Of a stretch of DNA of 64,000 nt, positions 33,571 through 52,137 are shown one piece after another. The notes beneath the pieces are model-generated. The model was given only the letters and a program-made list of their open reading frames with translations, was not told where the DNA came from and did not search any database. The translations under genes and the position numbers were made by a program. Location of the stretch: the IMG/VR virus record IMGVR_UViG_3300020460_000012. One strand, given 5' to 3'. Positions within the stretch are counted from its first letter, which is position 1; every line of letters starts with the position of its first letter. Source of the stretch: a virus. Its lineage: Duplodnaviria; Caudoviricetes.

Positions 33571-33604
33571 TTATATATGTACTTAATAATTGAAGGAGAT
33601 ATGT

Positions 33605-34417
33605 GTGAAGTATGACAGGATATTTGCTTTCGGATGTAGTTATACAAGGTTTCCGTGGCCTACATGGGCAGATATAATTGCATATGATTTAGACATACCT
33701 TTCGAAAATTGGGCTAATGCAGGTCACGGCAATGTTTCTATTGCTCATCATATGTTAGAGTGTAACTTGCTAAAAAAGTTTACACCTAAAGATTTAATTC
33801 TTGTATGTTGGTCTACTTGGAATAGAGAAGATAGATTAATGCACGACGGTTGGCATGCAGGAGGGAATATTTTAAACAATAATTTTTATGGAAGTAAATG
33901 GCTTAAAAAATATTGGTCAGAGTATAATGACACAGCAAAAAATTGTTATGCAATTATTAGTGCAAACAAGATGCATAATATATCACATCAAAGTCATATA
34001 GCAGACTATGCAAATACTCCGTTAGATCAAGGCCCTGCATTGTCTTACAGTTTTAATACACCAAGATACATGGAATACGGATTAGATGTATTAGAAAAAG
34101 AGTTGCCTCAAAAAATTCTTTTTGATAATTTTAATAATAGTAAATTTGAAGGACAACTTACCGATCAGCATCCGGATATAAAAAGTCATTTAAATCATGC
34201 GTATTTGGTTTTAGATATGCTAGGAATAAACATGAAAGAAACAACTAAAAAAGGTTACACAAAATTACATAATGATGTTGTAAATAGTCTTAGAATGAAA
34301 TATGGAGGCACCCGTTTATCAGATTGGGCAAGGATAAAGGAATTTATGGTATCTTATAATTGGGGACATTTTATGAAAAGCAGAGATATTAATAGAAAGG
34401 TTGGTGAAGCACAATGA
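33605..34417 (+). CDS. SGNH/GDSL hydrolase-like protein
   Basis: GTG start 6 nt after AGGAG (the track uses TTG at 33590). FAFGCSYT, GHGN and late DQHP. Confidence 0.6.
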   Translation: MKYDRIFAFGCSYTRFPWPTWADIIAYDLDIPFENWANAGHGNVSIAHHMLECNLLKKFTPKDLILVCWSTWNREDRLMHDGWHAGGNILNNNFYGSKWLKKYWSEYNDTAKNCYAIISANKMHNISHQSHIADYANTPLDQGPALSYSFNTPRYMEYGLDVLEKELPQKILFDNFNNSKFEGQLTDQHPDIKSHLNHAYLVLDMLGINMKETTKKGYTKLHNDVVNSLRMKYGGTRLSDWARIKEFMVSYNWGHFMKSRDINRKVGEAQ

Positions 34418-35637
34418 AAATAGGTTTTATTGGTACAGGAAAATTAGGTATGCCTTGTGCAGAAGCTATAGCAGAAAAAGGACATGATGTTAGAGGCTAC
34501 GATGTAATTAATCATCAAAGCAAAACTGTTTTAATGTGCAGTGACATTTATACTTGTGTAAATGATAGAGATATTGTGTTTATTGCAGTGCCTACTCCTC
34601 ATGATCCTGCATACGATGGTCGTAAACCAACTGCACATCTTGAACCTAAAGATTTTAGCTATGATATTGTTATACAATGTTTAAAAGAAGCTAATAAGCA
34701 TATGAATAAAGAACAATTACTTGTGCTTATTAGCACAGTATTACCTGGCACCACACGTAGAGAATTTGCACACTTAGTCACTAATACTAGATTTGTGTAC
34801 AATCCTTATTTAATTGCAATGGGAAGCGTTGCCTGGGATATGGTTAACCCGGAAATGGTAATGATAGGTACCGAAGATGGAACCAAAACAGGTGATGCAC
34901 AAGAACTTGTAGAGTTTTATGAAACTGTTATGGAAAACAATCCACGCTACGAAGTTGGTACTTGGGACGAATGCGAGTGTATTAAGGTTTTTTATAACAC
35001 TTTTATAAGTGCTAAGATAGGACTTGTAAATATGATTCAAGATGTAGCTGAAAAACAAGGTAACATAAATGTTGATGTTGTTACTAATGCTCTTGCACAT
35101 AGCGATAAGCGTATAATGGGTCCACAGTATATGACAGCTGGTATGGGAGACGGCGGCGCATGTCATCCTAGAGATAATATCGCCTTACGCTATATGGCAC
35201 AAGAACTAGGATTAGGATATGATTTGTTTGACAGCATTATGCATGCAAGAGAAATACAAGCAGAAAATCTTGCCAAACGTTTAGTTGAAGAAGCTAAGGA
35301 AACAGACTTGCCTATTTTAATTCATGGAGCGGCGTACAAACCAGATGTACCTTATCAAGATGGTAGTTATAGTCTATTAGTTGGACATTATTGTGAGCAA
35401 ATGGGATATCATCCAATTTATGTTGATCCATATACACACCCTCAAAAAGGACCATTTAAAGCTGTAGCTTTGTTGGCACACAGTAGTGATGTTACATACA
35501 AGTATATGGGTAAAAAGCACAAACAAGAATTATATTGTTACTTAGAACCAGGTAGTATAATTGTTGATCCGTGGAGAACATTTGATAAAAGACAAAACGA
35601 ATTTAAGGTAGTATACTACGGGGATACAAGAAAGTAA
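34414..35637 (+). CDS. UDP-glucose/GDP-mannose 6-dehydrogenase family protein, 407 aa
   Basis: Rossmann motif IGTGKLG, FIAVPTP, STVLPG, YNP, ECIKVFYN (catalytic Lys) and GGACHPRD (catalytic Cys). Confidence 0.9.
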   Translation: MKIGFIGTGKLGMPCAEAIAEKGHDVRGYDVINHQSKTVLMCSDIYTCVNDRDIVFIAVPTPHDPAYDGRKPTAHLEPKDFSYDIVIQCLKEANKHMNKEQLLVLISTVLPGTTRREFAHLVTNTRFVYNPYLIAMGSVAWDMVNPEMVMIGTEDGTKTGDAQELVEFYETVMENNPRYEVGTWDECECIKVFYNTFISAKIGLVNMIQDVAEKQGNINVDVVTNALAHSDKRIMGPQYMTAGMGDGGACHPRDNIALRYMAQELGLGYDLFDSIMHAREIQAENLAKRLVEEAKETDLPILIHGAAYKPDVPYQDGSYSLLVGHYCEQMGYHPIYVDPYTHPQKGPFKAVALLAHSSDVTYKYMGKKHKQELYCYLEPGSIIVDPWRTFDKRQNEFKVVYYGDTRK

Positions 35638-36317
35638 TGTACGACATAGTTTTTATTTCATATCAAGAGCCTAATGCAGATGAAAATTATGGTAAACTAA
35701 AAGAACGTTTTCCATTAGCAAAACGTTTACATGGTGTAAAAGGAATTCATCAAGCCCATATTGCCGCGGCAAAAAAATGTTTTACAAAAATGTTTTGGAT
35801 TGTAGACGGCGATGCAATTATAGAAAATAATTTTAATTTTGATCACGAAGTTCCTTGGCACCAGTTAGATCATGTTCATGTTTGGCGTGCAAAAAATTCA
35901 GTAAATGGATTAATATATGGATATGGAGGAGTAAAATTATTTCCTAGACAAATGACTATTGACATGGATTTATCTAAGCCAGATATGACAACAAGTATAA
36001 GTGGAAAATTTAAAGCTATACAAGAGATAGCAAACACAACTGTATTTAATACTGATCCTTTTAATACATGGAAAAGTGCTTTTAGAGAATGTTGTAAATT
36101 AAGTAGTAAAGTTATTGATAAACAAAAAGATATAGAAACAGATAAAAGATTACACACTTGGTGTACAAGAGGAAAAACAAAACCATTTGGAGAATATGCA
36201 ATACAAGGTGCCTTAGCAGGTAAGGCATACGGTGAAGAGAACAGAACTATGCCAGAAAATTTACGTAAAATTAATGACTTTGATTGGTTATTGGAGAAAT
36301 TTAATGGAAACACATGA
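35637..36317 (+). CDS. Glycosyltransferase-like protein, 226 aa (paralogue of 23676)
   Basis: YDIVFISYQEPNA...IVDGDA...YGYGGVKLFP...WKSAFRE. Confidence 0.55.
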   Translation: MYDIVFISYQEPNADENYGKLKERFPLAKRLHGVKGIHQAHIAAAKKCFTKMFWIVDGDAIIENNFNFDHEVPWHQLDHVHVWRAKNSVNGLIYGYGGVKLFPRQMTIDMDLSKPDMTTSISGKFKAIQEIANTTVFNTDPFNTWKSAFRECCKLSSKVIDKQKDIETDKRLHTWCTRGKTKPFGEYAIQGALAGKAYGEENRTMPENLRKINDFDWLLEKFNGNT

Positions 36318-37065
36318 GCTATTAGATAGATTAGCATTGCTGTACCCGGATAATGATCTTTTAAGAGATTTGCGTAGGGCTTTTGTTGATGACGATAGAA
36401 ATAGTTTACATAGAATTATTAGAAGTATTAATGATACAGAATTAACAAATAGTATCAGGTTACTTGATAACGACATGTCATTTGTTACAGACTCTTTGTC
36501 TCGTGGACAAATCAAAAGTAAAATGTGGATTATAAATGAGCTGAAAAAATTAAATTTAGATTTAGGCACAGTATTTCTTTGTGCAGGTTGGTACGGAATA
36601 CTTGCAACTTTAATTTTTGAAAACAATTTAAAAGTAAACAAAATAAGAAGTTTTGATATAGATAAATCTGTGTTAGACATTGCAGAACGCTTTAATAAAA
36701 AGTGGGTGCAAGATGATTGGAAATTTAAGCCAGCTACTTATGATATACATAAGATAGACTACACTGGATTTGCGTATGATGTAAGTAGATCAAACGGAGA
36801 GATAGTAGAGCTATATGACTCTCCAGATACAGTAATTAATACTTCATGTGAACATATATTTGACTTTGATGAATGGTACTTAAAAATACCTAAAGGAAAG
36901 TTATTAATACTTCAATCAAATGACTTTTTTGAAGGTACAGGTCATGTAAACTGTTGTGAAGTTTTGGAAGACTTTGAAGAACAAACTCCTTTTGAGGATA
37001 CCTTATATTCAGGAACACTTGATTTAAAAATGTATACAAGGTTTATGCGTATCGGATACAAGTAA
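36304..37065 (+). CDS. Class I SAM-dependent methyltransferase-like protein
   Basis: ATG at 36304 is preferred. VFLCAGWYG resembles motif I; also IRSFDID and VINTSCEH. Confidence 0.6.
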   Translation: METHELLDRLALLYPDNDLLRDLRRAFVDDDRNSLHRIIRSINDTELTNSIRLLDNDMSFVTDSLSRGQIKSKMWIINELKKLNLDLGTVFLCAGWYGILATLIFENNLKVNKIRSFDIDKSVLDIAERFNKKWVQDDWKFKPATYDIHKIDYTGFAYDVSRSNGEIVELYDSPDTVINTSCEHIFDFDEWYLKIPKGKLLILQSNDFFEGTGHVNCCEVLEDFEEQTPFEDTLYSGTLDLKMYTRFMRIGYK

Positions 37066-38330
37066 TGGATAACGCTACTACTAAAAAAGTACTGGACAAA
37101 ATTAGTCCGAGCTTTTGTATAGCAAAATGGGCAAGAACAAATGTGAGGACCTATGAAGGTACTTCATATAGTTGTCATCATTGTAGGCCTATAATTACTC
37201 CTAAAGAAAATGTTGTTAATGATCACGAAACACTTACCAACAATGACAAAGTTAAAGATTATAGACAACAAATGTTAGATGGTGAACGGCCTGAAGAATG
37301 TAATTACTGTTGGACAAGGGAGGATCAGGGGTTTGTAAGTGATCGTATTTTGAAAAGTGCCAAGTTCATTACTGAACATAAAATGAATCCCTTTACAGTA
37401 GCAGAAAAATTAACACATGACCCTGTACATTTAGATATTGCATTTGACAGAACATGTAACTTTAAATGCTCCTACTGCGGCCCGCAAAATAGTAGCTTGT
37501 GGGCAGAAGAAATATCTCAATATGGAGACATAGAAGGATTACCTAGTTTTGTAAATAGAGAACAAATTTTAAACAAGGATGAAAATCCTTATAATGACGC
37601 ATTTTGGAAATGGTGGGACAGTGGGTTAAAAAACAGCCTAAGACATTTAACTATTACTGGAGGCGAACCTTTGCTTTCTAAACAATTTTGGAAAGTATTA
37701 GATAGAGTTGAGGAAGAAAAATTAGATATCACCGTTATGGTAAACACTAATTTATGTCCACCAGTCAAACTATTCAATAAATTTATGGATAGAGTAAAAA
37801 ATTTTAATCAAGATAAATTGATAGTCTCTACAAGCATTGAGTCTACAGGACAACGTGCAGAGTATAGTAGATATGGACTAAATTATGATATGTTTATGGA
37901 AAATTTTAAAACTATTTTAGATAATACTAAAATGAGAACAGCAGTAAATCTTACTAACAATGCTTTAAGTTTTACTTCTATGACAGATATAGTTGAAGAA
38001 ATTACAAAATTTAAAGCTAAATATGGTGCAAGGAGAATTATCTTACATAGTAATGATGTGACCTATCCTAAATATCTTAATTTAAGATTACTTCCTGAAA
38101 GTATTAAAAAACAAGAAGTAGCAAAGTTTAAAAAATTTATGAAATCAAATTTAGATCAATTTACAGAAATTGAAAAATTAAAATTTGCAAGAACACTTGA
38201 TGTTGCTTTAGTTGAAGAACCAGAAAAAGAAATGTATAGAGATCAATTTTTTAAATTTATTAAAGAATATGATAAAAGAAGAAACTTGAATTTTCAAGAT
38301 ACATTTCCAGAGTTGGCTAGGGTTATATAA
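37065..38330 (+). CDS. Radical SAM enzyme with N-terminal twitch-like cluster, 421 aa
   Basis: CNFKCSYC and GGEP. N-terminal CIAKW...SCHH...CNYCW. Confidence 0.85.
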   Translation: MDNATTKKVLDKISPSFCIAKWARTNVRTYEGTSYSCHHCRPIITPKENVVNDHETLTNNDKVKDYRQQMLDGERPEECNYCWTREDQGFVSDRILKSAKFITEHKMNPFTVAEKLTHDPVHLDIAFDRTCNFKCSYCGPQNSSLWAEEISQYGDIEGLPSFVNREQILNKDENPYNDAFWKWWDSGLKNSLRHLTITGGEPLLSKQFWKVLDRVEEEKLDITVMVNTNLCPPVKLFNKFMDRVKNFNQDKLIVSTSIESTGQRAEYSRYGLNYDMFMENFKTILDNTKMRTAVNLTNNALSFTSMTDIVEEITKFKAKYGARRIILHSNDVTYPKYLNLRLLPESIKKQEVAKFKKFMKSNLDQFTEIEKLKFARTLDVALVEEPEKEMYRDQFFKFIKEYDKRRNLNFQDTFPELARVI

Positions 38331-39577
38331 TGTCTAAAACTAAAACACCATGGTGCATAGATCCATTTATACAAATGGCGCATACTGCTGATGGATTTTT
38401 TAGAGTATGCTGTATTGGCGAAGTAAAAAGAGAACGCAAAGATCTTAATACTAAGGCGATGACGCCTTTAGAATATTGGAATAGTGATGTAAGTAAACAA
38501 ATACGTAATGACATGTTTAAACCTATAGAGGAGTTTAGCGATACTACAAAATTTGCTTGCAGTCAATGTTTAAAAAATAATAGAGATGGTGTACGTAGTC
38601 GTAGACAAACAGAAAATACAAGGTACCGAGATAGTAAAAAAGCAAAAATAAATGTTATTAAGCATCTAAAAAATATTGATTACACTTATGAAGATTTACT
38701 TTATGTAAATTTTAAAGTTTTAGGAAACATATGTAACTTAAAATGTGTTATGTGTAGTGCTAATGCAAGTAGTAAAATTGCCGCTGAAGCAAAACAACAT
38801 TATGGATTTCCAAAAGGGTGGAGTGCAGGCGATAAAGCTGAGTTAGAACCTTTTACTCCTGATACACGTAATGACTATTTTACAGAATTACAAAAAATAA
38901 TCGACAGTATTCCTAAATTTAATCTTGTTGGCGGTGAAAACTTAATTCATCCAGACTTTCCTCGTTTATTCCAGATGTTTATAGACAGTCCAAATGTTGG
39001 CAATATAGATATGCTTATAATAACTAACGGTACAATAGTACCAGACATTGTTCAAGATAATGCACATTTGTTTAAAAGTATGACTATACTAATAAGTATG
39101 GACGGCGTATTTGAAAGAGGTTCTTATGTAAGATCTGGACTAAATTGGAAAAAGTTTGATACTAATGTAAGGAAGTTTGCAAATAATAAAGATGTGTTTT
39201 TACGATTAGTGCCAGCAATACAAATGCTAAATGTTGGATACGTAAAAGAGATGCATAATTGGATAGAGTCTGTAGGATTAGACCCTAAGATGGCTATAGA
39301 TTGGAATAATGTTGTTACATATCCTGAAACATTACGTGCAGTTAATTTACCACGCGAAATAAAACAACAGTATATGCGTAGAATGGTAGGACCTGACGTA
39401 ACTCATCCTTCAATAAGAGTTGTATTCAATATACTTAAACAGCCTCAATATAGTCATAAAGAGTTCATCGAAGGACTTAAATACTTAAGAAAGCTTGACA
39501 AAATTAGGAACACCAATTTATTAGATCATTTTCCTGAATTTGAGAAGTACATAGGAGAATTAGATGATAACAGATAA
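38330..39577 (+). CDS. Radical SAM enzyme with N-terminal twitch/SPASM-like cluster, 415 aa
   Basis: CNLKCVMC and GGE. N-terminal WCIDPF...G...VCC...CSQC. Confidence 0.85.
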   Translation: MSKTKTPWCIDPFIQMAHTADGFFRVCCIGEVKRERKDLNTKAMTPLEYWNSDVSKQIRNDMFKPIEEFSDTTKFACSQCLKNNRDGVRSRRQTENTRYRDSKKAKINVIKHLKNIDYTYEDLLYVNFKVLGNICNLKCVMCSANASSKIAAEAKQHYGFPKGWSAGDKAELEPFTPDTRNDYFTELQKIIDSIPKFNLVGGENLIHPDFPRLFQMFIDSPNVGNIDMLIITNGTIVPDIVQDNAHLFKSMTILISMDGVFERGSYVRSGLNWKKFDTNVRKFANNKDVFLRLVPAIQMLNVGYVKEMHNWIESVGLDPKMAIDWNNVVTYPETLRAVNLPREIKQQYMRRMVGPDVTHPSIRVVFNILKQPQYSHKEFIEGLKYLRKLDKIRNTNLLDHFPEFEKYIGELDDNR

Positions 39578-40286
39578 GGAAAAGGCAGAATTAGCAAAGT
39601 TTAGCTATTACAAAAATTATAAAGAGGGACTTATTCCTTCACCAAAGATGATGGATTTAGTATGCGAAACTCAATTAGCGGCTTTGGGTGATTTTGTTCC
39701 ACTAAAAATAAAAATAAAATTAGGTAATTTTAAAAAAGAAATATCTAAGTATGATGGCAAGTGGGTTCCTTACCTTGCAAGAGAAGGTGAACAAAATGAT
39801 AGGCAAGGACTTAATTATGTAGGACTTGAGGGAGATACTCCATACGATAGTATTAGCTTGCCTGAAGTTAGAAAGCGTACAGGAAAACTATTACGTGAAA
39901 CTGATTTTACAGTTCCTACAGAATTATTTGAAACACTACCTAGTTTAAAGCCTATTACTAGTATTTGGCCAACACTTGGACGTTGTACTCTTGTAAAAGT
40001 AAACAAAGGAGGATGGTTTCCTTATCATAGAGATAGTGTATTAATTAATAGAAATACTTTTAGGATTATAGCCTTTCTTACTAACACAGGTCACGAAAGC
40101 TACCAATGGGAACATGATTATGCATTACGTAATATAGAAGAAGGCAGATGCTACTATGTAAATACACAAAAAGCACATAGGACGCATAGTTATGTTCATG
40201 ATAGTATACATTTAGTTATGAATGTACCAAAAACTTTTGATAATATCTTAAGGACAATGGATTTACTAAAACACGGCGAGACCTAA
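39564..40286 (+). CDS. 2OG-Fe(II) oxygenase (Asp/Asn beta-hydroxylase-like), 240 aa
   Basis: HRD triad in GWFPYHRD, distal His in NTQKAH, and IHLVMNV. Confidence 0.65.
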   Translation: MITDKEKAELAKFSYYKNYKEGLIPSPKMMDLVCETQLAALGDFVPLKIKIKLGNFKKEISKYDGKWVPYLAREGEQNDRQGLNYVGLEGDTPYDSISLPEVRKRTGKLLRETDFTVPTELFETLPSLKPITSIWPTLGRCTLVKVNKGGWFPYHRDSVLINRNTFRIIAFLTNTGHESYQWEHDYALRNIEEGRCYYVNTQKAHRTHSYVHDSIHLVMNVPKTFDNILRTMDLLKHGET

Positions 40287-41002
40287 TGCGTGACCCTTCT
40301 ACAATAAAAAAGTTACAAGATAGAATGTCTCCTGCTTATTGCATAAGCAACTTTCTTACCGAACAAAATTTATCTGATTTATATAGTGTTTGGTTAAGCA
40401 CTCAAGATAGTGCAATAGAAAAAAACACCGGCCCTATAACTGTAAACTTAAAAGACATTCGACACGAAAAAATCATAAAAGATGTAATACAAAAAATTAA
40501 AAATGAAATAGGCGAGGATTGTGAATGTTGGGGCGGGCAATTTTTTTATACAAATGTTCCTTATGTAGTACACAACGACGATGACATTGATAGATTTCCA
40601 AATGCATATAAAGCCTTTAGTATGCCAATAAAAGTTTGGCCAGAAGAGAAAGAAAGTTCTCTAACTGAATTAATTTTGTTTGAACAATCATATTTTAACG
40701 GTCCTGCAAAGTTTTTTAAAGGAGGCCCTATACAACAAACTTATTATAATGTTGCAGTATATGATTACAAAGATGTCAAAAATATAAAAGATATACCTAT
40801 TCCAAAAGCAATTACCAATAAATTATTGCCTCATTTAAAAAGTGAATGGTTGCAAGGATTAAGTATTGATAATAAATTTTCTTGGCAAATAGGAGATGCA
40901 ATAGTTTTTGATTCTCTTAAGTTACATGCAAGCACAGACTTTAGGAAAAAAGGTATACAATCGAAATTAGGTCTAAGTTTATTTTTTGAGAAAGCATTAT
41001 GA
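40286..41002 (+). CDS. 2OG-Fe(II) oxygenase-like protein, 238 aa
   Basis: VVHND and FDSLKLHAS. Confidence 0.55.
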   Translation: MRDPSTIKKLQDRMSPAYCISNFLTEQNLSDLYSVWLSTQDSAIEKNTGPITVNLKDIRHEKIIKDVIQKIKNEIGEDCECWGGQFFYTNVPYVVHNDDDIDRFPNAYKAFSMPIKVWPEEKESSLTELILFEQSYFNGPAKFFKGGPIQQTYYNVAVYDYKDVKNIKDIPIPKAITNKLLPHLKSEWLQGLSIDNKFSWQIGDAIVFDSLKLHASTDFRKKGIQSKLGLSLFFEKAL

Positions 41003-41562
41003 GATTAGAAACATTCAATCATAAAACTATAAATGAGAGTCAGAGATACGCATTAGAAAGTCTATCTAAATACGCAAGTACATTAGATGATCCTGCCGCA
41101 AAAAATTATGCTGTAGAAGATTGGGAAGAAAGGGTAGACACTTTATTATATGCTTTTTACAAGAAAAAAAGATTTGAAATATTTAATATTTTATATCATC
41201 AAGATACACCTATAGCAATGGCAGGAGCATATGTTTTTAATCACCAACCAATCATTGGAGTAAGAACATTTACCCATCCAGATTTTAGAGGTGGAGGACA
41301 TTGGTGTCAAGCAAGATACATACTTCCTGCTCAAATAGATTATTACGATGAAAAAGGATATAAAAAAGTATGGCTCACTTTTAATGATTATAATAAGCGT
41401 TTAGTAAATTTTATTAAACGTATAAGTGAAGGTAAATCTTCACATTTAGGTGGAGGCCCAAAAAAAATATATCAAAATCTCACATGGCATGACCAGCCAA
41501 AGACTGTACAATACACAAAACAAATAATTGCCGAACTAGTTATTGCTGACTATAAATCCTGA
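40999..41562 (+). CDS. GNAT-like acyltransferase, 187 aa
   Basis: RTFTHPDFRGGG resembles the acyl-CoA-binding motif A. Confidence 0.5.
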   Translation: MRLETFNHKTINESQRYALESLSKYASTLDDPAAKNYAVEDWEERVDTLLYAFYKKKRFEIFNILYHQDTPIAMAGAYVFNHQPIIGVRTFTHPDFRGGGHWCQARYILPAQIDYYDEKGYKKVWLTFNDYNKRLVNFIKRISEGKSSHLGGGPKKIYQNLTWHDQPKTVQYTKQIIAELVIADYKS

Positions 41563-41568
41563 TAAATA
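41562..41568 (+). promoter_or_regulatory. T4-late-like promoter motif ATAAATA, 5 nt before ATG (possible leaderless mRNA)
   Basis: ATAAATA-ttaac-ATG(41574), with no SD sequence in between. Confidence 0.5.
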
Positions 41569-41573
41569 TTAAC

Positions 41574-42326
41574 ATGAAGGACATTTTTAGAGCAAATACA
41601 ACCTATTTTCCGTTTATACAAGCTGTCAGTACAGTAACATTTGTATACATGTTATTTCAGTCAGTGCCTATGCAATGGTGGTTGTTAAGCATGGCTATGT
41701 ATTTTTTAACTGGTTGTTTAGGTATAACTATAACTTTTCATAGGTATTTGACTCATAAAAGTTTTAAATTTAGATATAAATGGATGGAATATTTGTTTTC
41801 GTTTTTTGGTGCAATAGGTGGAACAGGCAGTTCAATAGGTTGGGTAGCTGTGCATAACGAACATCATAAAAATGCAGATCAACCAGGAGATCCTCATGCT
41901 CCACATAACGGTTTTTGGAATGTTATTATTCCTTCGTATGAATTTGATATGAACAAATGGGCTGTAAGAAGGCTTATAACAAACAAATTTCATTTAGCAT
42001 TACACAACTATTACTATTTGATATTATTAGTATGGTTTGCACTACTTTTCCTATTAGGTGGAAGTAATGTATTAATTTTTGCAGGTATTATTCCTGTTGC
42101 ATTTCAGATTTGGGCTAGCGTATTAAGTAATTACGGCAATCATAGTTGGGGGTACCGTAATTTTAAAACAAAAGAAGACAGTAGGAATACTTGGTGGTTA
42201 GCCGCAATTACATGGGGTGAAGGCTGGCATAATAATCATCATGCTAAGCCGGGTAAATGGAATTTTCAATATAAGTGGTGGGAACTTGACCCAAGTGCTT
42301 GGATAATTCGATTAGTTAAGATTTAA
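41574..42326 (+). CDS. Membrane fatty acid (acyl-CoA delta-9-type) desaturase, 250 aa
   Basis: Three His boxes: HRYLTH, HNEHH and HNNHH (in GEGWHNNHH). Hydrophobic TM segments. Confidence 0.9.
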   Translation: MKDIFRANTTYFPFIQAVSTVTFVYMLFQSVPMQWWLLSMAMYFLTGCLGITITFHRYLTHKSFKFRYKWMEYLFSFFGAIGGTGSSIGWVAVHNEHHKNADQPGDPHAPHNGFWNVIIPSYEFDMNKWAVRRLITNKFHLALHNYYYLILLVWFALLFLLGGSNVLIFAGIIPVAFQIWASVLSNYGNHSWGYRNFKTKEDSRNTWWLAAITWGEGWHNNHHAKPGKWNFQYKWWELDPSAWIIRLVKI

Positions 42327-43795
42327 TGTATCATGCAATTATTTTTACAGGTTTAGATGTAGGCTCCAAAAACTATTTTAGGCCACTGGGTGCTTATCGA
42401 ATAAGAACAGAGTTAGAGTCAAAAGGCTACAAAGTAAAAGTAATTGACTATTTCCATAATCTTGAAGATGAACATATTGAAACTGCGTTAGACAAATATG
42501 TTGGAAAAGAAACATTATGGGTCGGTTTTAGCACAACATTTTTTAACACTTCAGAATTATTAGCAAAAAGATCACCTTTTTTTGAAAGGCTACGCAAAAA
42601 ATATAGTGTGCCTTTTGTAATGGGAGGCGCAAAAAGTATTGTTGAATATTTAGATTGGGCAGATATTTTTATTACTGGTTATGCTGATGATGCAACAGTA
42701 GCAGTCACTAATTATCTTGCCGACAAAGGTCCTACTCCTGTATGGAGAGATTATAAAGGAAAAAAGGTAATAGATAGCAATCATCAATACGATAAAAAAG
42801 ATTTGTCAAACATAGGTGTTGTATGGAAACCAGAAGATGGCATAGATTCACGTCAAGCGTTACCTATGGAGATAGCAAGGGGCTGTATCTTTAATTGTGC
42901 ATTTTGTAATTTTCCATTGAACAATAAAACTAAATTTGATTATGTTAGAGTCAAAGATGATATGCAAAATGAATTTATAAGGAATTATGAAAATTTTGGT
43001 ACTACTAGCTATTGGTTAATGGATGATACTTATAATGATAGTATGCAAAAGTTAGAACTAATGCATGATATAATTACATCTCTTCCTTTTAAGATAAAAT
43101 TTGACACATATGTTAAACCCGAACTTTTAGTAAGATGGCCAGATCAAATAGATTTATTAGTAGAAACTGGTTTGCGTGGTGCAAGCTTTGGTGTTGAAAG
43201 TCTAAATACCCGTGCAAGACAAGCAATACAAAAAGGTGCTAATGCAGATAAGGTCCTCGATGCAATTACAAGTATGAAACAAAAAAGTAACGGACAAGTA
43301 AAGGTACAATGTAACTTTATAGTAGGACTACCTTATGAAGATGAGAAAAGCATTTGGAAAACACACGAGACTGTAATTAACCATGATGCAATAGATTGGT
43401 GGAATTGGTATCCCTTACTAATACATTCAAAAGATCATCATGAATATCATTCCCCAATAGATAGAGATCCAGCAAAATATGGATATGAAGTAGCAAGCAC
43501 TCCTGTGTTAATTAAAAACACAGGCGCAGGAAAAACAAATGCTTGGAATACAATGTGGCGTAATGATTATATGAATTCTATGACAGCTGGTAAATTAGCA
43601 GGAAAACTAAGAAATATGGATCAGCCATTATTAAAAATAGGCGGCTGGAGTTGTGGAAGCTACGAGAGTTTAGGTGTTGATGTAGACAAACATTATGAGA
43701 CATTTGACGGCATGGAAAAAGATTTACCTATCGACAGTATGTTACAAAATAAGAAAAAAATAATAGATGATTATATTCAAAAAGAAATAGTATAG
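42326..43795 (+). CDS. Cobalamin-binding (class B) radical SAM enzyme, 489 aa
   Basis: N-terminal B12-binding-like region (VGFSTT, VMGG). EIARGCIFNCAFC, DDTYN, GVES and FIVGLP. TAATG overlap with the desaturase. Confidence 0.8.
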   Translation: MYHAIIFTGLDVGSKNYFRPLGAYRIRTELESKGYKVKVIDYFHNLEDEHIETALDKYVGKETLWVGFSTTFFNTSELLAKRSPFFERLRKKYSVPFVMGGAKSIVEYLDWADIFITGYADDATVAVTNYLADKGPTPVWRDYKGKKVIDSNHQYDKKDLSNIGVVWKPEDGIDSRQALPMEIARGCIFNCAFCNFPLNNKTKFDYVRVKDDMQNEFIRNYENFGTTSYWLMDDTYNDSMQKLELMHDIITSLPFKIKFDTYVKPELLVRWPDQIDLLVETGLRGASFGVESLNTRARQAIQKGANADKVLDAITSMKQKSNGQVKVQCNFIVGLPYEDEKSIWKTHETVINHDAIDWWNWYPLLIHSKDHHEYHSPIDRDPAKYGYEVASTPVLIKNTGAGKTNAWNTMWRNDYMNSMTAGKLAGKLRNMDQPLLKIGGWSCGSYESLGVDVDKHYETFDGMEKDLPIDSMLQNKKKIIDDYIQKEIV

Positions 43796-45077: not shown

Positions 45078-45752
45078 TTATTTCTTTCTGCCAAATACTC
45101 TAATCTGCACTCTAGGCGAAAAAATTTCTGTGGTACAATGTGGCATACTATCATCAAAGTGCCAACATTTATATTTTGATTCATCAACTTCGTGCATCTC
45201 TTTTCCTACTCTGTATTGCAAATGACCGCCACCATCAGAAACATTTAGTGTTATAGCAACACCACCGTTCCTAAAATATAATAAATTATCTCTGTATCTA
45301 GCATCTGCATGCACTATACCTTTACTAGGTGGAGTTTGACCTACAAGTCTAACACAACTTACATATTTAAGATTAAACTTGTTTACAATTTCTATTAGAC
45401 TTTGTGGTGTATCTTCTTTCCATTTCCATGCAGTATCATACACATGCCAAATAGGACTTCTACCTCTAAATGTATCTAAATAACAAGTATTCTCTGTTTC
45501 AGGAATGCCGGGGATATGTGTAAAGTTATAGTTTACAAATGTTTTATATTTGTTTTCTACTAGATTACGGTTTTCATCGTAATGAGTGACATCATCGTAC
45601 TGTTCAAAGTAACCATCTTTATCATAATTACTACGTCCGTCAGTGTAAATAACAGTAGCGAGAAAGCTTTTATCAAACATATTTGTTGACATTAAGTCCG
45701 CATAAAGACTTTGCTGATCAAAGTCAACATCTATAGGTACAAAAGCATTCAT
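45078..45752 (-). CDS. 2OG-Fe(II) oxygenase-like protein (AspH-like), 224 aa
   Basis: VHAD, FDDSMPHCT and PRVQIRVFG. Confidence 0.55.
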   Translation of the reverse strand: MNAFVPIDVDFDQQSLYADLMSTNMFDKSFLATVIYTDGRSNYDKDGYFEQYDDVTHYDENRNLVENKYKTFVNYNFTHIPGIPETENTCYLDTFRGRSPIWHVYDTAWKWKEDTPQSLIEIVNKFNLKYVSCVRLVGQTPPSKGIVHADARYRDNLLYFRNGGVAITLNVSDGGGHLQYRVGKEMHEVDESKYKCWHFDDSMPHCTTEIFSPRVQIRVFGRKK

Positions 45753-45767
45753 ATAAGTATTTATTTA
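45753..45767. promoter_or_regulatory. Overlapping divergent late-like promoter motifs
   Basis: Minus-strand TAAATA occurs twice (45758-63 and 45762-67), the nearer copy 5 nt from the ATG at 45752. Plus-strand ATAAGTA (45753-59) lies upstream of the ATG at 45777. Confidence 0.45.
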
Positions 45768-45776
45768 GGGGTATTG

Positions 45777-46658
45777 ATGGTACAAACATTTCCGATATCA
45801 GCTTTAACACATAATAATTATTTTACTACGTCTGGTCACGGTTCAAGATGGAAAGTAAAATTGAAATCAGGTGACAGGTTTCCAGATAATTATTACAAGG
45901 AAAGTATTAGAGCCGCTCGGCTACTAGACTCTTCAATTGACGCACCTTTGGTATTATTGTTCAGTGGTGGTTTAGATAGTGAATATATGGTGAATGTTTT
46001 TATTAAATCGGGTGTAGAATTTAAAGTAGCAATTATAAGTTACGGAGATTATAATAAACATGATAACAAGTATGCCTTTGAATTTTGCAAAAAGCGTAAC
46101 ATAGAGCCTATTGTTATTGATGTCGATATAGAGAAATTTATTACTAGTGGCAGAATAATTGAAATAGCAAATGAAGCCAAATGTTGTGCTTATCAGATTC
46201 CTAGTATTATGGAAGGTATACTTAAAGTAGATGGTGCTGTAATAATGGCAAACGGAGAACCTTATGTAAAAAACTTTGATGGTGATTGGCGATGGGAAGA
46301 AACTGAAAGAGTCAATAGTTATATGAATTGGTACAAACAAAAAAATATTCTTGGTACACCGGATTTTTTAAGATATACTCCTCAAATGACAGCAGGTTTT
46401 TTGTTAGAACCTAGGGTAATGAAATTAGTGAACAATGAATTACCTGGAAAATTAAGCACTAGAACTAGTAAACATATAATATACAGTCAAAACTTTGACC
46501 TTGCAAAAAGATCAAAATTTACAGGCTGGGAAAAATTAGAACAAACTGATTTTATGAATAACGAAGTATTCCGTGAATTTGATTTATTAAAGAAAAAGTA
46601 TGACGGGGTTTTCGAAATGCAATACCAAGCTTTACTTGATATACTTTTACCTACATAA
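45777..46658 (+). CDS. PP-loop (adenine nucleotide alpha-hydrolase; asparagine-synthetase/QueC-like fold) protein
   Basis: ATG at 45777 is preferred. PP-loop LLFSGGLDSE. Lacks the QueC Zn-binding Cys cluster. Confidence 0.55.
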   Translation: MVQTFPISALTHNNYFTTSGHGSRWKVKLKSGDRFPDNYYKESIRAARLLDSSIDAPLVLLFSGGLDSEYMVNVFIKSGVEFKVAIISYGDYNKHDNKYAFEFCKKRNIEPIVIDVDIEKFITSGRIIEIANEAKCCAYQIPSIMEGILKVDGAVIMANGEPYVKNFDGDWRWEETERVNSYMNWYKQKNILGTPDFLRYTPQMTAGFLLEPRVMKLVNNELPGKLSTRTSKHIIYSQNFDLAKRSKFTGWEKLEQTDFMNNEVFREFDLLKKKYDGVFEMQYQALLDILLPT

Positions 46659-47141: not shown

Positions 47142-47702
47142 ATGCAGTATTTTATTCTTAACAATCTTATTTATGACACAAATTTACTAAAACAAAACAT
47201 TAAGAATATACAAAATTGGGAGTACTATGGGTCAGGCAGAACTAGATTAGGTGTTGTGCTTTCTGACAAAGATACAATAAAGCATATAGCTTCCAAATTC
47301 AATAAACCTAAAGATATAATTTATAAAATAGAATCAAACTGTATACATCCATACGAAAGAGTGTTACCTCATACTGATCACGATAGAAGAGTAACATGTA
47401 ATATTCCAGTAAGTGGTGATTTTGATAATAGCTTTGTTAAGTTTTATGCTAATAATACTACTGGATCTGCAATACCTGTTGCACCCAACACTACAAAACC
47501 TAACACTGCAAAGAGATATGATAATGCAGAAATGTTAGGAAAAGTTAGTTACACAAAACCTATTTGTTTTGATACGCAAAATATACATGGTGTAGATAAT
47601 CTAACAAAAGAAATACGTTATATTATTACTATATCATTTCGGCTAGATCTAAGCTATGAAAATATATTAAATATGTACAACAATGGAGATCTGCTTAAAT
47701 GA
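47142..47702 (+). CDS. 2OG-Fe(II) oxygenase-like protein, 186 aa
   Basis: PHTD, FDTQNIHGV and RYIITISF. Confidence 0.6.
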   Translation: MQYFILNNLIYDTNLLKQNIKNIQNWEYYGSGRTRLGVVLSDKDTIKHIASKFNKPKDIIYKIESNCIHPYERVLPHTDHDRRVTCNIPVSGDFDNSFVKFYANNTTGSAIPVAPNTTKPNTAKRYDNAEMLGKVSYTKPICFDTQNIHGVDNLTKEIRYIITISFRLDLSYENILNMYNNGDLLK

Positions 47703-48391
47703 TTCAAGGATATGAAATAATCAAAAATTGCTTTGATCCTGTTGATCTTGCAAAGTGTAGTCAAGATCTTCTTGATAGGAAAGAAGATTCGTATATCTAT
47801 GAACATGATGGTAGTATAAGGAGTGTGTTTGCACCACATTGGTATAATAAAAATGTTGAAAAGTTTGTGTATAATAATCCTGCAATTCCTCGTATAAAAG
47901 AATTAATAGCAGATGAAATATATGTGCATCAAGTACATTTTAATTACAAATTAGCAGGTGTAGGCGGAGAATATGCATGGCATAGCGATTATACATTTTG
48001 GCATTACTATGATGGCATGCCCAATCCAAACGCTATAAGTGCCCTGTATCTTTTGGACGACATGACAGATGAAAATGGACCATTAGAAGTAAAGATTAAT
48101 AGTCATAAAGGACCAGTCCAAAAACCTCCAAAAGGGGAGTGGACTATAAAGCATGACAGTAAGGAACTACCTATAAAAACACCGTCTAAGACTGCATATA
48201 AGCGTCATACAGTGCTTGGCAAAGCTGGTGATGTAGTTTTGATGCATGCTAATTTACTACACGCTAGCAAGGCAAATAAGAGCCATAAAAACCGAAAAGT
48301 GCTATTTATATGCTATAATTCGCTAAAAAACGCCACGACAGAGGCGTTAAGACCTGGTTATATTACCCTAAAAAATTTTAAGACTGTTTAG
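47699..48391 (+). CDS. Phytanoyl-CoA dioxygenase family, ectoine hydroxylase (EctD)-like, 230 aa
   Basis: YAWHSDYTFWHYYDGMP resembles the EctD signature FxWHSDFETWHxEDGMP. Also LDDMTDENGPL, HANLLHAS and RKVLFICYN. Confidence 0.75.
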   Translation: MIQGYEIIKNCFDPVDLAKCSQDLLDRKEDSYIYEHDGSIRSVFAPHWYNKNVEKFVYNNPAIPRIKELIADEIYVHQVHFNYKLAGVGGEYAWHSDYTFWHYYDGMPNPNAISALYLLDDMTDENGPLEVKINSHKGPVQKPPKGEWTIKHDSKELPIKTPSKTAYKRHTVLGKAGDVVLMHANLLHASKANKSHKNRKVLFICYNSLKNATTEALRPGYITLKNFKTV

Positions 48392-49514
48392 TAATGTTGA
48401 TGTGTGTTAGTACGTTTTCGTACTTTATCTCGGCATTTAAGAGCCTTTTATCAGTGGTGATTGCATAGCCATTTAAGCCTACAAGTAAGTCCAAACGCCT
48501 TAAGTATTGTTGTTGATTTGGTAGTTTGAGCTCATCATATTCTACTCCAGGACGCATAGATACTTTATATTTTCCTTTTCCTAAGTTAAAATATCTAAAT
48601 ACCACTGCTTTATCAAGCTTAATTTTTTCTTTTGTCTTATGTACAATACTATCCATTAATATTCTATTATAATTACAATTGGCAGAATATTTTATTATAG
48701 TTTGTCCACTTGTACTTAATCTTGGACTAAAGTCTACAAGATATGGAACATTATCACGGACTACAAAATCAGCCATAAAAGGACCATTATTATAGTCTAA
48801 GCTTTCGCACATAATCTTGCAATAATTTCCTATATCACACTGTACAGACGTATCTACTTTGCTAGGCCAAGTAAACCCTGTTTCAGCTCTAAACGGAAGA
48901 TCACTAATTTCTATGTCATATATACAGTCTAAAATATATTCTCCATCTACTATTCTGCCTGATACACTTACAGTTGGCCCTTCAATAAACTCTTGGTATA
49001 TGTAATGGGAGTTTAGATCATTATAATGTATATCATCCAAAAAGTATCTATATTCACTCCAATTGTTTAACACTTTGATACCGATCCCGCCAGTGCCGTT
49101 AGCAGGTTTTGCTACCACAGGAAATTGTCTTCTTAGTTTTAAATGGGTTATTGGTACAGGTATACCAATATTATATGCATGGTTAGTATAATTTTCTTTA
49201 CTACTTAATATATCACATTGCTGTTTGTTAATACCTACTAGATCATGAATATATGGCAACATCATATCATTATACAAAGGAAAAATATAATCAATTTTGT
49301 GTGTAGATATAATTTCTCTAAGTTGATTTGCAAGTTCCTTTCTATCATCGGTGCTAATAATAAAATTAGGAATTTTATCTGGTACAGTAGGTAGTAGTTT
49401 GTCTAAAAAATCACTTACATGTGTCTGCCATGTATATAACTTATAATTGTTTAGTTCTTGTGTAGTGTATCTTAAATTATCACTTTGATAGTTTATAATT
49501 ACTTTAGGAGCCAT
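48378..49514 (-). CDS. ATP-grasp domain ligase (amino-acid ligase-like), 378 aa
   Basis: VVAKPANGTGGIGI, YQEFIEGPTVSV and ADFVV...LVDFSPRLS. Confidence 0.8.
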   Translation of the reverse strand: MAPKVIINYQSDNLRYTTQELNNYKLYTWQTHVSDFLDKLLPTVPDKIPNFIISTDDRKELANQLREIISTHKIDYIFPLYNDMMLPYIHDLVGINKQQCDILSSKENYTNHAYNIGIPVPITHLKLRRQFPVVAKPANGTGGIGIKVLNNWSEYRYFLDDIHYNDLNSHYIYQEFIEGPTVSVSGRIVDGEYILDCIYDIEISDLPFRAETGFTWPSKVDTSVQCDIGNYCKIMCESLDYNNGPFMADFVVRDNVPYLVDFSPRLSTSGQTIIKYSANCNYNRILMDSIVHKTKEKIKLDKAVVFRYFNLGKGKYKVSMRPGVEYDELKLPNQQQYLRRLDLLVGLNGYAITTDKRLLNAEIKYENVLTHINITKQS

Positions 49515-50115
49515 ATGTAACCTTATCCCTCATAAATGTGTTCATATAGTGAAATTTCATACTAACAAATCTTATTGTTACATCATACGGTAAAGGCTTA
49601 CCTCCTAAGCAATGATCATACAATTTGTTTCCAGTCATATGTCCTGCTTTTACATATGCGGCATCTGTAATATTATATTTTTCATCGTACAATTTACCCA
49701 TCTTATCACCAAACTTTGATACATTTTGTCCTTGTAGTTGATTGCTTCCTTTTTTACTTACATTGTCTATGTCAAATTTTCTAATCCAAAAAGCACCCCA
49801 CTTTCCTCTTTCTTCACAATCGTCTATTTGGAACTTTACAAGTTTCGATATATTTTTTATATTAGTAAAATGACTTTGATCCCGTCTTGCTAGCAAAGTA
49901 TCAGTAGTAGTCCAAGGCATATTAGGCAAGTTGTTGTTTGCAATTACTGCTTGTATTTCATCGTCATGTATAGATGCATATACATTTCTATCATCTGCAA
50001 TGTATTTTACATTTTGCCATTGTGGATCTTTTTGCAGTGAGTGTAATTCAATTTGCGTATTAATAAATTTATAAAACATTTCTTTATGTTCGAAAGTTAG
50101 TTTAACACACTTCAT
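49504..50115 (-). CDS. Hypothetical protein (possibly degenerate GNAT-like fold), 203 aa
   Basis: Coupled to both neighbours (TAATG overlap upstream, 11-nt overlap downstream). The fold guess is weak. Confidence 0.65.
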   Translation of the reverse strand: MKCVKLTFEHKEMFYKFINTQIELHSLQKDPQWQNVKYIADDRNVYASIHDDEIQAVIANNNLPNMPWTTTDTLLARRDQSHFTNIKNISKLVKFQIDDCEERGKWGAFWIRKFDIDNVSKKGSNQLQGQNVSKFGDKMGKLYDEKYNITDAAYVKAGHMTGNKLYDHCLGGKPLPYDVTIRFVSMKFHYMNTFMRDKVTYGS

Positions 50116-51050
50116 TAGTATCCGCCTTCATTTCTTAATACATGTTCGAAGAAAGGAGCTACAGTCCAATTTTCAGTTAATCTACCCCTATTAGGATTAT
50201 CATGGTCAACAACACCGTCGTCATTTACAGACCAATCTACTAATCGAATTAAGATAGTACCTATTCTTGTTTTATATTCAAACATTCTACTAGTCATTCT
50301 ATCGCCATCTTGCGGACCTGCTTTAACTACTCCACTACTTGTTTCAAAAATATTTTCTTTTTTTACTCCTAGTTCTTTTACAGCTAAGTCCATTAGTTCT
50401 TCCATTGAATAACTACTATCTTGCATATGTCTACCAATAAGTCCTACACTTTTCATACGAAGCACAGGTGTTATTCTATTATAAGGAGCAGTAGTATTAA
50501 AATTTATTCCACTTTTTTCTGCAAGATCAGTGAAAACTTCTACTTGTCTACGCATTGTCCTTTCATTTACACCTTTTGCAATAATTGTTCCTGTATTCAC
50601 AGGTAATCTAGCATCGAAAATATTTTTTAAAGCTCTTACTTTTGCAGTCGCCCATTTACCTTCATCTAGTATTTTATAAACTTCGTCGTCGTCTGCACCA
50701 TTCATTGAATGTAATAATAAACGCAATCCAGCATCTTTTAATTTTTGAACATATTCTGGTCTTGCTAGTTTCAGTCCATTAGTTGTTACACTAGGTCTGT
50801 GACCGTATTTTTTAACTGCGGTAATTATTTCTGGTAGATCTTCACGCATAGTAGGTTCTGCTCCGATAATACGTATGTAAGATCTAAAAGGTAATCGCTG
50901 TAAAAAATCAAATAGTTTATGTTTGTCTAAATCAGGTATATTCCGATTAGGAATATAACAGTTAGCACATTCCATTTGACATTTATGTGTAATATCAACT
51001 ACAATATTAGAAAAGGTATTGTTTTCTGGTTGAAGTTCGAAATACTTCAT
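50115..51050 (-). CDS. Radical SAM enzyme, MoaA/NifB/PqqE/SkfB-type core
   Basis: ATG at 51050 is preferred. CQMECANC, GAEPTMREDL, TTNG and KGVN. No C-terminal auxiliary Cys cluster. Confidence 0.85.
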   Translation of the reverse strand: MKYFELQPENNTFSNIVVDITHKCQMECANCYIPNRNIPDLDKHKLFDFLQRLPFRSYIRIIGAEPTMREDLPEIITAVKKYGHRPSVTTNGLKLARPEYVQKLKDAGLRLLLHSMNGADDDEVYKILDEGKWATAKVRALKNIFDARLPVNTGTIIAKGVNERTMRRQVEVFTDLAEKSGINFNTTAPYNRITPVLRMKSVGLIGRHMQDSSYSMEELMDLAVKELGVKKENIFETSSGVVKAGPQDGDRMTSRMFEYKTRIGTILIRLVDWSVNDDGVVDHDNPNRGRLTENWTVAPFFEHVLRNEGGY

Positions 51051-51051
51051 A

Positions 51052-51750
51052 CTAGATCCAGAACTGCACTCGCCACAGTGTTCTCGATCCAGTAAAAGCA
51101 TGGCGTCTATGCATTACTCTTATATTATCGTAAATAAGGATATCATTTGGTTCCCATTGATGTTCATATATATTCTTCTCACAATGTGTAATTAAATGAC
51201 TTACATCTATATCAGTTTGTAGTGAACCAGGACTAAAGTATAAAACTTTATCTCCAGTGATATGATGTGTATGTGCAAATTTTCTTGTTTGCTTGCGTTT
51301 TTCTAGTATTCTTTTTTGTTGTTCAGTAAAACAATAGTTGTATGCATCTGGAGGAAAATAAGTACCTTCTTGATCTTCTAATTCTTGTTTGTTAGGATAA
51401 GTTTGGTATGCATCTTTCATATCTACAAAATCTGTAGTGCTTTTTTCTCCGTTTAATTTATTGTAGAGCATTGTACCAAAATAATTTCCTCTACCATAAC
51501 TCCAATCATTATGCCATTCTACATCTCCGTCTATAAAAAGATCTGTCTCACTAACAATTTGTATGGTGTTATTTTTATTTAAAACATGATTTTTTGTATG
51601 AACTAGTTTACCTAAACGTGTTGACATTTGTTCATAGTCGGCAACACTTAGAGATCGATTGCCTTTGAACACAATTAATCCGTATTTTAATAACTCTTCT
51701 TGTAAATTTAGTTTATCGAAGGCGGTGATGTCATATACTTTTGGGGTCAA
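51052..51750 (-). CDS. TauD/TfdA-family 2OG-Fe(II) dioxygenase
   Basis: Likely TTG start at 51750 after AGGA. Motifs WHND, TDFVDM and WEPNDILIYDNIRVMHRR. Confidence 0.85.
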   Translation of the reverse strand: MTPKVYDITAFDKLNLQEELLKYGLIVFKGNRSLSVADYEQMSTRLGKLVHTKNHVLNKNNTIQIVSETDLFIDGDVEWHNDWSYGRGNYFGTMLYNKLNGEKSTTDFVDMKDAYQTYPNKQELEDQEGTYFPPDAYNYCFTEQQKRILEKRKQTRKFAHTHHITGDKVLYFSPGSLQTDIDVSHLITHCEKNIYEHQWEPNDILIYDNIRVMHRRHAFTGSRTLWRVQFWI

Positions 51751-51760
51751 GCTTTTAATC

Positions 51761-52102
51761 CTAATAAGTCGTTTTTTTACTAATTTTATTATACTTATCA
51801 GTGTGTATAACTGTAGCACCTTCAAAGTGAGGTGTTGTAGTATATGAAAGAATGACGCAAGGGTCACCTATTTCGCCTAATCTAGCACCCCCGCCATTTA
51901 ATTCGAATACTCCTTGGTCCCCTTTAATTACATAGGTACTCCATCGGTTGCCTGTGTTAAGATTAACTACATCAACTTTTTGATATTGATCTATATTAGC
52001 TTCATCTAAAAGAACACTACAGATAGTAACACTACCATCATAGTGCAATGATTTATCAGTAACTATTATATTTTGGATTTTGGATTGGATATATTCTTTC
52101 AT
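51761..52102 (-). CDS. panD: Aspartate 1-decarboxylase (pyruvoyl-dependent), 113 aa
   Basis: SKI, the HYDG|S self-cleavage site, GNRWSTY (Arg54/Thr57/Tyr58 equivalents) and LNGGGAR...GD. Confidence 0.9.
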   Translation of the reverse strand: MKEYIQSKIQNIIVTDKSLHYDGSVTICSVLLDEANIDQYQKVDVVNLNTGNRWSTYVIKGDQGVFELNGGGARLGEIGDPCVILSYTTTPHFEGATVIHTDKYNKISKKTTY

Positions 52103-52108
52103 AGTACT

Positions 52109-52137
52109 ATTGTACTACAAAGTATACAATATGTCAA
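52109..52137 (-). promoter_or_regulatory. sigma70 promoter for the panD operon
   Basis: TTGACA-17 nt-TACAAT. The -10 box ends 6 nt before the panD ATG, consistent with a leaderless transcript. Confidence 0.8.

Follow-up and report, generated by a model that had tools for sequence, protein, structure and literature searches.

Carnosine synthase CARNS1 is an ATP-grasp enzyme which takes beta-alanine as its acyl substrate. Capsule synthesis in Campylobacter includes the amidation of glucuronate by Cj1438, through its ATP-grasp domain and with amines from auxiliary enzymes (PMC11800379). For E. coli, it was shown that the cleavage of PanD requires PanM, also designated PanZ, a protein with a GNAT fold (PMC3398536). 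An ATP-grasp ligase is encoded together with a PanD and a protein of GNAT fold in a stretch of 64,000 nucleotides from a virus of the Caudoviricetes (IMG/VR record IMGVR_UViG_3300020460_000012), which as a whole is called the window here. Searches of the literature revealed no paper describing such a phage PanD/ATP-grasp system, in agreement with an initial annotation of this DNA, which knew of no described phage system of this layout. For this core of three proteins, the best explanation, to which an even chance is given, is that the phage makes beta-alanine and joins it by amide ligation to a partner.

Related loci were fetched from IMG/VR and from public assemblies, and the proteins of the window were mapped onto each of them. 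PanD, the GNAT-like protein, the ATP-grasp protein and a convergently encoded hydroxylase of the PhyH family are present in approximately 17 distinct contigs of this clade of marine jumbo phages. Across these loci the identities are 38-76% for the ATP-grasp protein and 18-77% for the GNAT-like protein, and the core survives rearrangements. The GNAT-like gene is always located directly upstream of the ATP-grasp gene, which it abuts or overlaps. In two loci, L028 and L029, PanD and an ATP-grasp protein of 30% identity are kept, and no GNAT-like gene was detected. Because PanD and the ATP-grasp protein form a conserved and co-transcribed pair, the feeding of beta-alanine into an amide ligation, as it had been proposed from the window alone, is the best reading of the locus.

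The variation within the core is confined to the slot between the genes for PanD and the GNAT-like protein. This slot is empty in L002-L004 and L020-L023. It contains a gene for a small oxygenase in L012, L013 and L017, accompanied in L013 and L017 by a gene for a protein of 106-108 amino acids. A TauD-radical SAM (S-adenosylmethionine) pair is present in the window, the arrangement TauD-TauD-radical SAM in L066 and L067, the closest relatives of the window with this insert, and TauD-TauD-desaturase-radical SAM in L001, L005 and L064. The commonest layout is the small oxygenase together with the 106-108-amino-acid gene, and the PanD belonging to it was found in 44 blocks of the collection. The 106-108-amino-acid gene is flanked by the genes for the small oxygenase and the GNAT-like protein, and its copy in L017 gave marginal matches to hotdog thioesterases (E about 0.01).

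Homologues of the radical SAM protein (57-74% identity) were also identified with one or two TauD genes in L006-L011, in which PanD, the ATP-grasp protein and the PhyH hydroxylase are missing. In L007, the radical SAM-TauD pair occupies the same slot after an Mtd_N fibre gene, in a backbone near that of the window (AAA ATPase 84% identical). The pair is likewise carried by L009, and no PanD domain was identified anywhere in the 322,647-bp, 90%-complete record behind this locus. Since TauD and radical SAM are absent from many of the core loci and occur alone in others, the locus consists of a conserved core and a separable, inserted TauD-radical SAM module. Of the self-contained five-gene operon suggested in the initial annotation, for which conserved synteny among relatives had been the proposed check, the conserved and co-transcribed PanD/ATP-grasp part was thus retained, whereas TauD and radical SAM have to be taken out of the core.

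In the window, the genes follow the promoter on the minus strand in the order PanD, TauD-family oxygenase, radical SAM enzyme, GNAT-fold protein and ATP-grasp ligase (Table 1). The genes for PanD and TauD are separated by 10 nt and those for TauD and radical SAM by 1 nt, whereas the radical SAM and GNAT-like genes overlap by 1 nt (TAATG) and the GNAT-like and ATP-grasp genes by 11 nt. All open reading frames and junctions of this tightly coupled set were found as they had been described. The downstream starts of the TauD and radical SAM genes agree with the points at which their homologues start aligning. However, the module does not end at the ATP-grasp gene, as the originally assigned extent of 48378-52137 implied, but reaches to position 47142, with the PhyH hydroxylase and the small oxygenase belonging to it. 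The PhyH gene is convergent with the ATP-grasp gene, overlaps its 3' end by 14 nt and adjoins it in every related locus reaching that far. It is a real gene, conserved with PanD and the ATP-grasp gene, and the suggestion that an EctD-like hydroxylase may take part in the pathway was strengthened. The small oxygenase is assigned to the set because in L012, L013 and L017 the slot between PanD and the GNAT-like gene is occupied by its homologue.

The single sigma70 promoter named in the initial annotation was located upstream of PanD. Taken alone, the match in the window is weak, because promoter-like sites are no more frequent in the region than in shuffled sequences (35 vs. 36.4, thus no excess) and because a second site matching 11 of 12 positions lies within coding sequence, at 50976-51005 on the plus strand, antisense within the radical SAM/TauD junction. 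This second site is most likely a chance occurrence in AT-rich DNA. The relatives, in contrast, speak well for a genuine promoter and a PanD message without a leader, since of 14 related loci, 13 keep the hexamers in TTGACA-N17-TAyAAT and their distance to the ATG of PanD, although the spacers diverge. The hexamers are kept even where the gene upstream of PanD is a different one. From the end of the -10 box to the ATG there are 6 nt and no Shine-Dalgarno sequence, which is a leaderless geometry, and this spacing is exact in nearly all of the regions compared (window, L001-L003, L012, L013, L020, L021, L024, L028, L064, L066 and L067). In L017, a longer leader is present ahead of PanD instead. 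The PanD message is therefore probably leaderless and transcribed from one conserved promoter, as judged from these sequence comparisons.

Table 1. Positions of the features of the window and of the related loci referred to in the text.
Feature	Position	Strand	Basis or remark
sigma70-type promoter TTGACA-17-TACAAT	52109..52137	-	11/12 match, comparative conservation
PanD, pyruvoyl-type aspartate 1-decarboxylase, 113 aa	51761..52102	-	PF02261
TauD/TfdA-family 2-oxoglutarate (2OG)/Fe(II) oxygenase, 232 aa, TTG start, accessory	51052..51750	-	PF02668
Radical SAM enzyme, 311 aa, accessory	50115..51050	-	PF04055
Divergent GNAT-fold protein, 203 aa	49504..50115	-	AlphaFold2 (AF2) model, structural matches
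ATP-grasp amide ligase, 378 aa, L-amino-acid-ligase-like	48378..49514	-	PF02655, PF13535
PhyH-family 2OG hydroxylase, EctD/GriE type	47699..48391	+	PF05721
Small 2OG/Fe(II) oxygenase-like protein, 186 aa	47142..47702	+	Residue pattern, AF2 model, Foldseek
PP-loop ATPase, weakly QueC-like, conserved neighbour	45711..46658	+	PF06508, 27.4 bits
Three adjacent paralogous genes, 200/235/224 aa	43777..45752	-	No family match
Same-strand gene array	20645..43795	+	
UDP-glucose/GDP-mannose dehydrogenase, within the array	34414..35637		
Open frame of >4061 aa, runs off the window start	3..12188	+	Probably giant structural protein
106-108-aa gene of the slot	L017:7919-8245; L013:7128-7448		
Trp_halogenase-family gene	L066:12244-13809		Flavin-dependent halogenase family
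Second PanD context	L015:258-2378; L019; L030-L055, L058, L061, L063, L065		
Third PanD context	L056:10001-12949; L060:10001-12055		Tandem PF12224 genes

PanD of the window was identified by PF02261 with 100.8 bits (gathering cut-off 25). It stays below the NCBIfam equivalog cut-off of TIGR00223 (79.3 vs. 106 bits) and belongs to a divergent, phage-specific clade with the motif NGGGARLGE. In an alignment to the structures of PanD from E. coli and Francisella (1PPY and 3OUG), residues K8, Y21, G23-S24, R53, T56, Y57 and N69 correspond to K9, Y22, G24-S25, R54, T57, Y58 and N72 of the E. coli enzyme, and the cleavage site and the catalytic residues are invariant across 26 homologues. At the position of His11, the window and its nearest relatives have Gln (Gln10), most other members of the clade have His and the Francisella protein has Ser, so that the Gln is not alarming. 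The alignment thus bears out what had been read from the window, namely the Gly/Ser cleavage site, the Arg/Thr/Tyr/Asn equivalents and the Gln at the His11 position. A tblastn search of PanD against 50,697 phage records mainly returned phage Jace and bacterial-looking fragments. For PanD, TauD, the GNAT-like protein, the ATP-grasp protein and the small oxygenase, the PHROGs gave no matching family.

The presence of every canonical residue of an aspartate decarboxylase is also expected if PanD were a stand-alone auxiliary metabolic gene, topping up the beta-alanine of the host for the synthesis of pantothenate and coenzyme A (CoA), with the other genes being unrelated cargo. The locus clearly takes up variable cargo, and the phage encodes many enzymes able to draw on acyl-CoA. 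However, across the clade PanD is bound to the ligase genes by one conserved promoter and by translational coupling, and in two unrelated phage groups it adjoins amide-forming or acyl-transfer enzymes, which makes a role in CoA supply quite unlikely. No PanB or PanC domain was identified in the 61 open reading frames of the window scanned against Pfam (12-63 kb covered), in line with the lack of panB and panC noted for the window; the scan comprised all frames except that of 4061 amino acids and those whose shortness excludes PanB or PanC. In five related fragments, which are 7-39% complete, no match to PanC was found above the cut-off. The matches to the PanC model below the cut-off were restricted to the region of the HIGH motif, in a gene for about 140 amino acids.

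Further evidence on the role of PanD was obtained from its other phage contexts. Among 46 loci of IMG/VR with a phage PanD, about 30 share a different conserved trio, consisting of a P-loop NTPase-GNAT fusion (about 362 amino acids, phrog_11143), PanD and a protein of about 222 amino acids with a weak match to CoA-transferase III. One of these loci, L019, matches the cultured Rhodococcus phage Jace (gp86-88) in length. The trio could be a route of beta-alanyl-CoA formation followed by transfer by the GNAT domain. In a third context (L056 and L060), two Amidoligase_2 genes stand in tandem, the first of them overlapping PanD, and a gene for an AAA_28 P-loop protein is located upstream; L057 and L062 were placed here by the similarity of PanD alone. 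The PanDs of all three contexts contain the same catalytic residues and the NGGGARLGE motif. Phage PanD is thus paired with three unrelated superfamilies of enzymes that form amides or transfer acyl groups, which supports a use of its product in an amide linkage and argues against a pure role in boosting CoA. A wider proposal, made tentatively, is that the PanD lineage of phages serves as a dedicated source of beta-alanine for three or more unrelated superfamilies of viral amide-forming enzymes (ATP-grasp ligases, GNATs together with a CoA-transferase-like protein, and glutamine-synthetase-like amidoligases), with beta-alanyl conjugates produced convergently and in the window tailored by a mobile TauD-radical SAM module. 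Such conjugates could be metabolites, or they could decorate glycans or modify macromolecules, and they would be relevant in infection.

The ATP-grasp protein was identified by PF02655 (45.1 bits, cut-off 23.2) and PF13535 (28.8 bits, cut-off 27). With a profile of the family, the best match in the PDB was the L-amino-acid ligase BL00235 (3VOT, E 8e-10), followed by the PurD-like protein 4DIM and by Ddl. In NCBIfam, the matches to PylC, DdaF, RimK and MfnD were all far under the cut-offs. The Pfam model of TupA-like ATP-grasp proteins did not match, and at E values up to 0.01 only ATP-grasp_3, ATP-grasp_4 and Dala_Dala_lig_C were obtained. All 71 sequence relatives are derived from metagenomes. 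Neither tblastn of this protein nor blastn of positions 47000-53700 gave a match in the 50,697 phage records, and a scan of bacterial and archaeal genomes with the ATP-grasp profile, a weak method since it rests on short conserved patterns, revealed no relative.

The protein encoded by the fourth gene, labelled hypothetical in the initial annotation, indeed has no match in Pfam, NCBIfam or the PHROGs, and the label can now be refined by structure. An AF2 model built from eight homologues (predicted local distance difference test, pLDDT, 69) found only GNATs among its 50 best matches, both in Foldseek (E from 3e-5) and in VIA-align (Z 9.7-11.6), and a profile of the family gave marginal matches to two GNAT structures. 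As predicted from this model, the protein has a GNAT fold. The family is very small: a search of 1.8 billion proteins gave 15 representative relatives.

A GNAT-fold protein encoded together with PanD brings to mind the E. coli pair, and the protein could be a PanZ/PanM-like partner for the maturation or regulation of PanD, in which case the cassette would consist of an activated PanD and a ligase. Chain B of 4CRY (PanZ) shares the top rank of the structural matches with others and shows the smallest root-mean-square deviation (Z 10.8, 2.7 A over 117 residues), the absence of a conserved CoA-binding loop suits a non-catalytic role, and PanD is again found beside a GNAT domain in the second phage context. 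However, about 50 other GNATs lie within 1-2 Z units of PanZ, the third phage context has no GNAT, and outside the enterobacteria PanD usually self-processes. The fixed position of the GNAT-like gene beside the ligase gene, with other genes being inserted between it and PanD, also argues against a PanZ-like role, which is regarded as distinctly unlikely. An alignment of the GNAT-like family to the P-loop-GNAT fusion of the second context with hhalign gave no significant match. A complex prediction for PanD, the ATP-grasp protein and the GNAT-like protein, run without controls, scored 0.00 and weighs neither way.

Of the putative tailoring enzymes, the TauD protein was identified by PF02668 (84.9 bits, cut-off 27) and contains the HxD...H iron triad as H-N-D with the distal H-R-R-H. 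The PhyH hydroxylase was identified by PF05721 (91.3 bits) and is not an EctD equivalog (TIGR02408, 111.7 bits vs. a cut-off of 336.5). Its nearest entries in the PDB are 7E01/7DZZ, EctD (3EMR) and the leucine hydroxylase GriE (5NCH), and both EctD and GriE act on small molecules. The nearest solved relatives of the ligase and of this hydroxylase point to small molecules as the putative substrates. In the small oxygenase, H77-x-D79, H149 and R159 are invariant, and an AF2 model (pLDDT 86) gave Foldseek matches to SnoN, proline hydroxylases and AspH. The radical SAM protein was identified by PF04055 (61.4 bits, cut-off 29.5) with C24, C28 and C31 forming the CxxxCxxC motif. It has no cysteine beyond these three, and thus none of the auxiliary-cluster cysteines of SPASM or twitch domains.

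ATP-grasp, GNAT and radical SAM proteins are seen in combination in gene clusters for ribosomally synthesized and post-translationally modified peptides. Together with the oxygenases, these enzymes might mature a ribosomal peptide or modify a structural protein, for example the product of the adjacent fibre gene, since the cassette follows a fibre-like gene and three conserved paralogous proteins are encoded nearby at 43777-45752. This explanation is very improbable. A decarboxylase for a free amino acid has no obvious role in it, no small open reading frame resembling a precursor travels with the cassette, and the radical SAM protein is devoid of the SPASM/twitch cysteines. Furthermore, the ATP-grasp protein does not exceed the cut-off for RimK, and no graspetide-type model was among its matches.

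For the synthesis and ligation of beta-alanine, the following steps are proposed from the chemistry of the enzyme families. PanD would cleave itself between Gly23 and Ser24, generating the pyruvoyl group, and would decarboxylate L-aspartate, or a 3-substituted aspartate, to beta-alanine. The ATP-grasp protein would activate a carboxylate as the acyl phosphate and couple it to an amine, which would give the amide beta-alanyl-X or X-beta-alanine. The GNAT-fold protein may acylate the remaining amine or present the acceptor, and the EctD/GriE-like hydroxylase and the small 2OG oxygenase may hydroxylate the product or a precursor. In the lineage of the window, TauD and radical SAM would act as an optional, separately inherited tailoring module, adding oxidative and radical steps.

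Several observations weigh against this explanation. All loci of the ATP-grasp form belong to one phage clade and one genomic position, so that the linkage of PanD and the ATP-grasp protein is not phylogenetically independent. The substrates of the ATP-grasp protein are not inferable by homology, because it meets no curated equivalog cut-off and no bacterial or archaeal relative was found. The GNAT-fold family has no conserved Q/RxxGxG/A CoA-binding loop after strand 4 and is very divergent, with D178 being its sole invariant residue; for these reasons, the protein may not be an acyltransferase. In addition, PanD alone could serve the CoA synthesis of the host, and the neighbourhood also fits the decoration of a glycan or a protein instead of a free metabolite.

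The decoration of a glycan would involve the amidation of a uronic acid, or the acylation of an amino sugar, by the ATP-grasp protein with the beta-alanine derived from PanD. The glycan would belong to the virion or the cell surface and would be made within a sugar island at 20-44 kb. The same-strand array identified there encodes at least five radical SAM proteins, a hexapeptide acetyltransferase, a DegT-like fragment, a GNAT and a fatty-acid desaturase, in addition to the UDP-glucose/GDP-mannose dehydrogenase, and looks like an island for the modification of glycans or lipids, which makes a glycan acceptor plausible. Moreover, the cassette is located directly downstream of the fibre-like Mtd_N gene, a Sulfotransfer_2 gene adjoins PanD in some relatives, and the amidation of glucuronate by Cj1438 is a precedent (PMC11800379). 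On the other hand, Cj1438C is TupA-like, whereas the protein of the window matches ATP-grasp_3/4 and an L-amino-acid ligase. The sugar island is on the opposite strand, more than 4 kb off and behind other genes, and no glycosyltransferase was identified within the cassette of any relative. A glycan acceptor is therefore held to be unlikely.

Two further candidates were set aside. The beta-alanylation of an aminated base as a DNA hypermodification was considered since the genome contains a 7-deazaguanine cluster, but nothing links the two loci. The synthesis of an aminolipid, in view of the desaturase and the Asp/Arg-hydroxylase-like genes nearby, is speculation without direct support.

The window has a GC content of approximately 33% and contains tail-collar and Mtd_N fibre-like genes. 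Its MoxR-type AAA ATPase, which has a DUF2201/vWA partner, is 50% identical to that of the Pseudomonas jumbo phage PA5oct. The PP-loop ATPase, a conserved neighbour of the cassette, is 46-69% identical in related loci; its match to PF06508 is confined to the N-terminal PP-loop, and its true start is probably near 45777. The three paralogous proteins encoded beside it share 64-92% identity among relatives, which is higher than for the surrounding enzymes. Among their homologues in L066, the halogenase gene listed in Table 1 was identified.

The five-gene form of the cassette is widespread. Marine metagenomes from 11 studies contained at least half of the sampled words of this stretch, and the window itself may derive from some of them. 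In marine metatranscriptome libraries of four studies, short contigs were identified which match stretches of the genes for PanD and TauD at 99-100% identity. As DNA carry-over is possible, these are a weak hint of transcription; they cover only parts of these two genes, and the rest of the genes carry no information on expression.

If the formation and ligation of beta-alanine is correct, an abundant ocean phage would make a beta-alanine compound of its own, and not merely boost the CoA of its host. With oxygenases, radical SAM proteins and desaturases inside it and genes for sulfotransferases and halogenases varying nearby, the slot between PanD and the ligase genes resembles a naturally occurring site of combinatorial tailoring. 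Phage PanD is found next to three kinds of amide-forming enzymes, which suggests a general and as yet unstudied viral strategy of beta-alanyl transfer. With its small size, the cassette lends itself to direct expression and assay.

Compared to bacterial PanD (PF02261, TIGR00223), the phage protein has the same fold, the same length, the Gly-Ser site and the Lys/Tyr/Arg/Thr/Tyr/Asn residues. It differs by the TIGR00223 score below the cut-off, the Gln at His11 and the NGGGARLGE motif, and it is coupled to a ligase instead of having a panB or panC partner in the window. Like the enterobacterial PanD-PanZ/PanM system (4CRY; PMC3398536), the phage encodes PanD and a small GNAT-fold protein. However, the latter has neither sequence similarity to PanZ nor a conserved CoA loop and is tied to the ligase gene, not to PanD. 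With the L-amino-acid ligases (BL00235 of Bacillus licheniformis, 3VOT; related to DdaF and PylC), the phage ligase shares the ATP-grasp_3/4 domains, while it differs by its very low identity, by the lack of cellular relatives in the searches and by its PanD and GNAT-fold partners. CARNS1 is a functional analogy taken over from the initial annotation, and the searches do not single it out over other ATP-grasp ligases. The amidation of the C. jejuni HS:2 capsule by Cj1438 (PMC11800379) follows a shared logic, in which a dedicated supply of a small amine is combined with an amide bond formed by an ATP-grasp enzyme. However, Cj1438C is TupA-like and fused to a glycosyltransferase, with the glucuronate of a polymer as acceptor, whereas the phage ligase resembles the L-amino-acid ligases and is a stand-alone protein.

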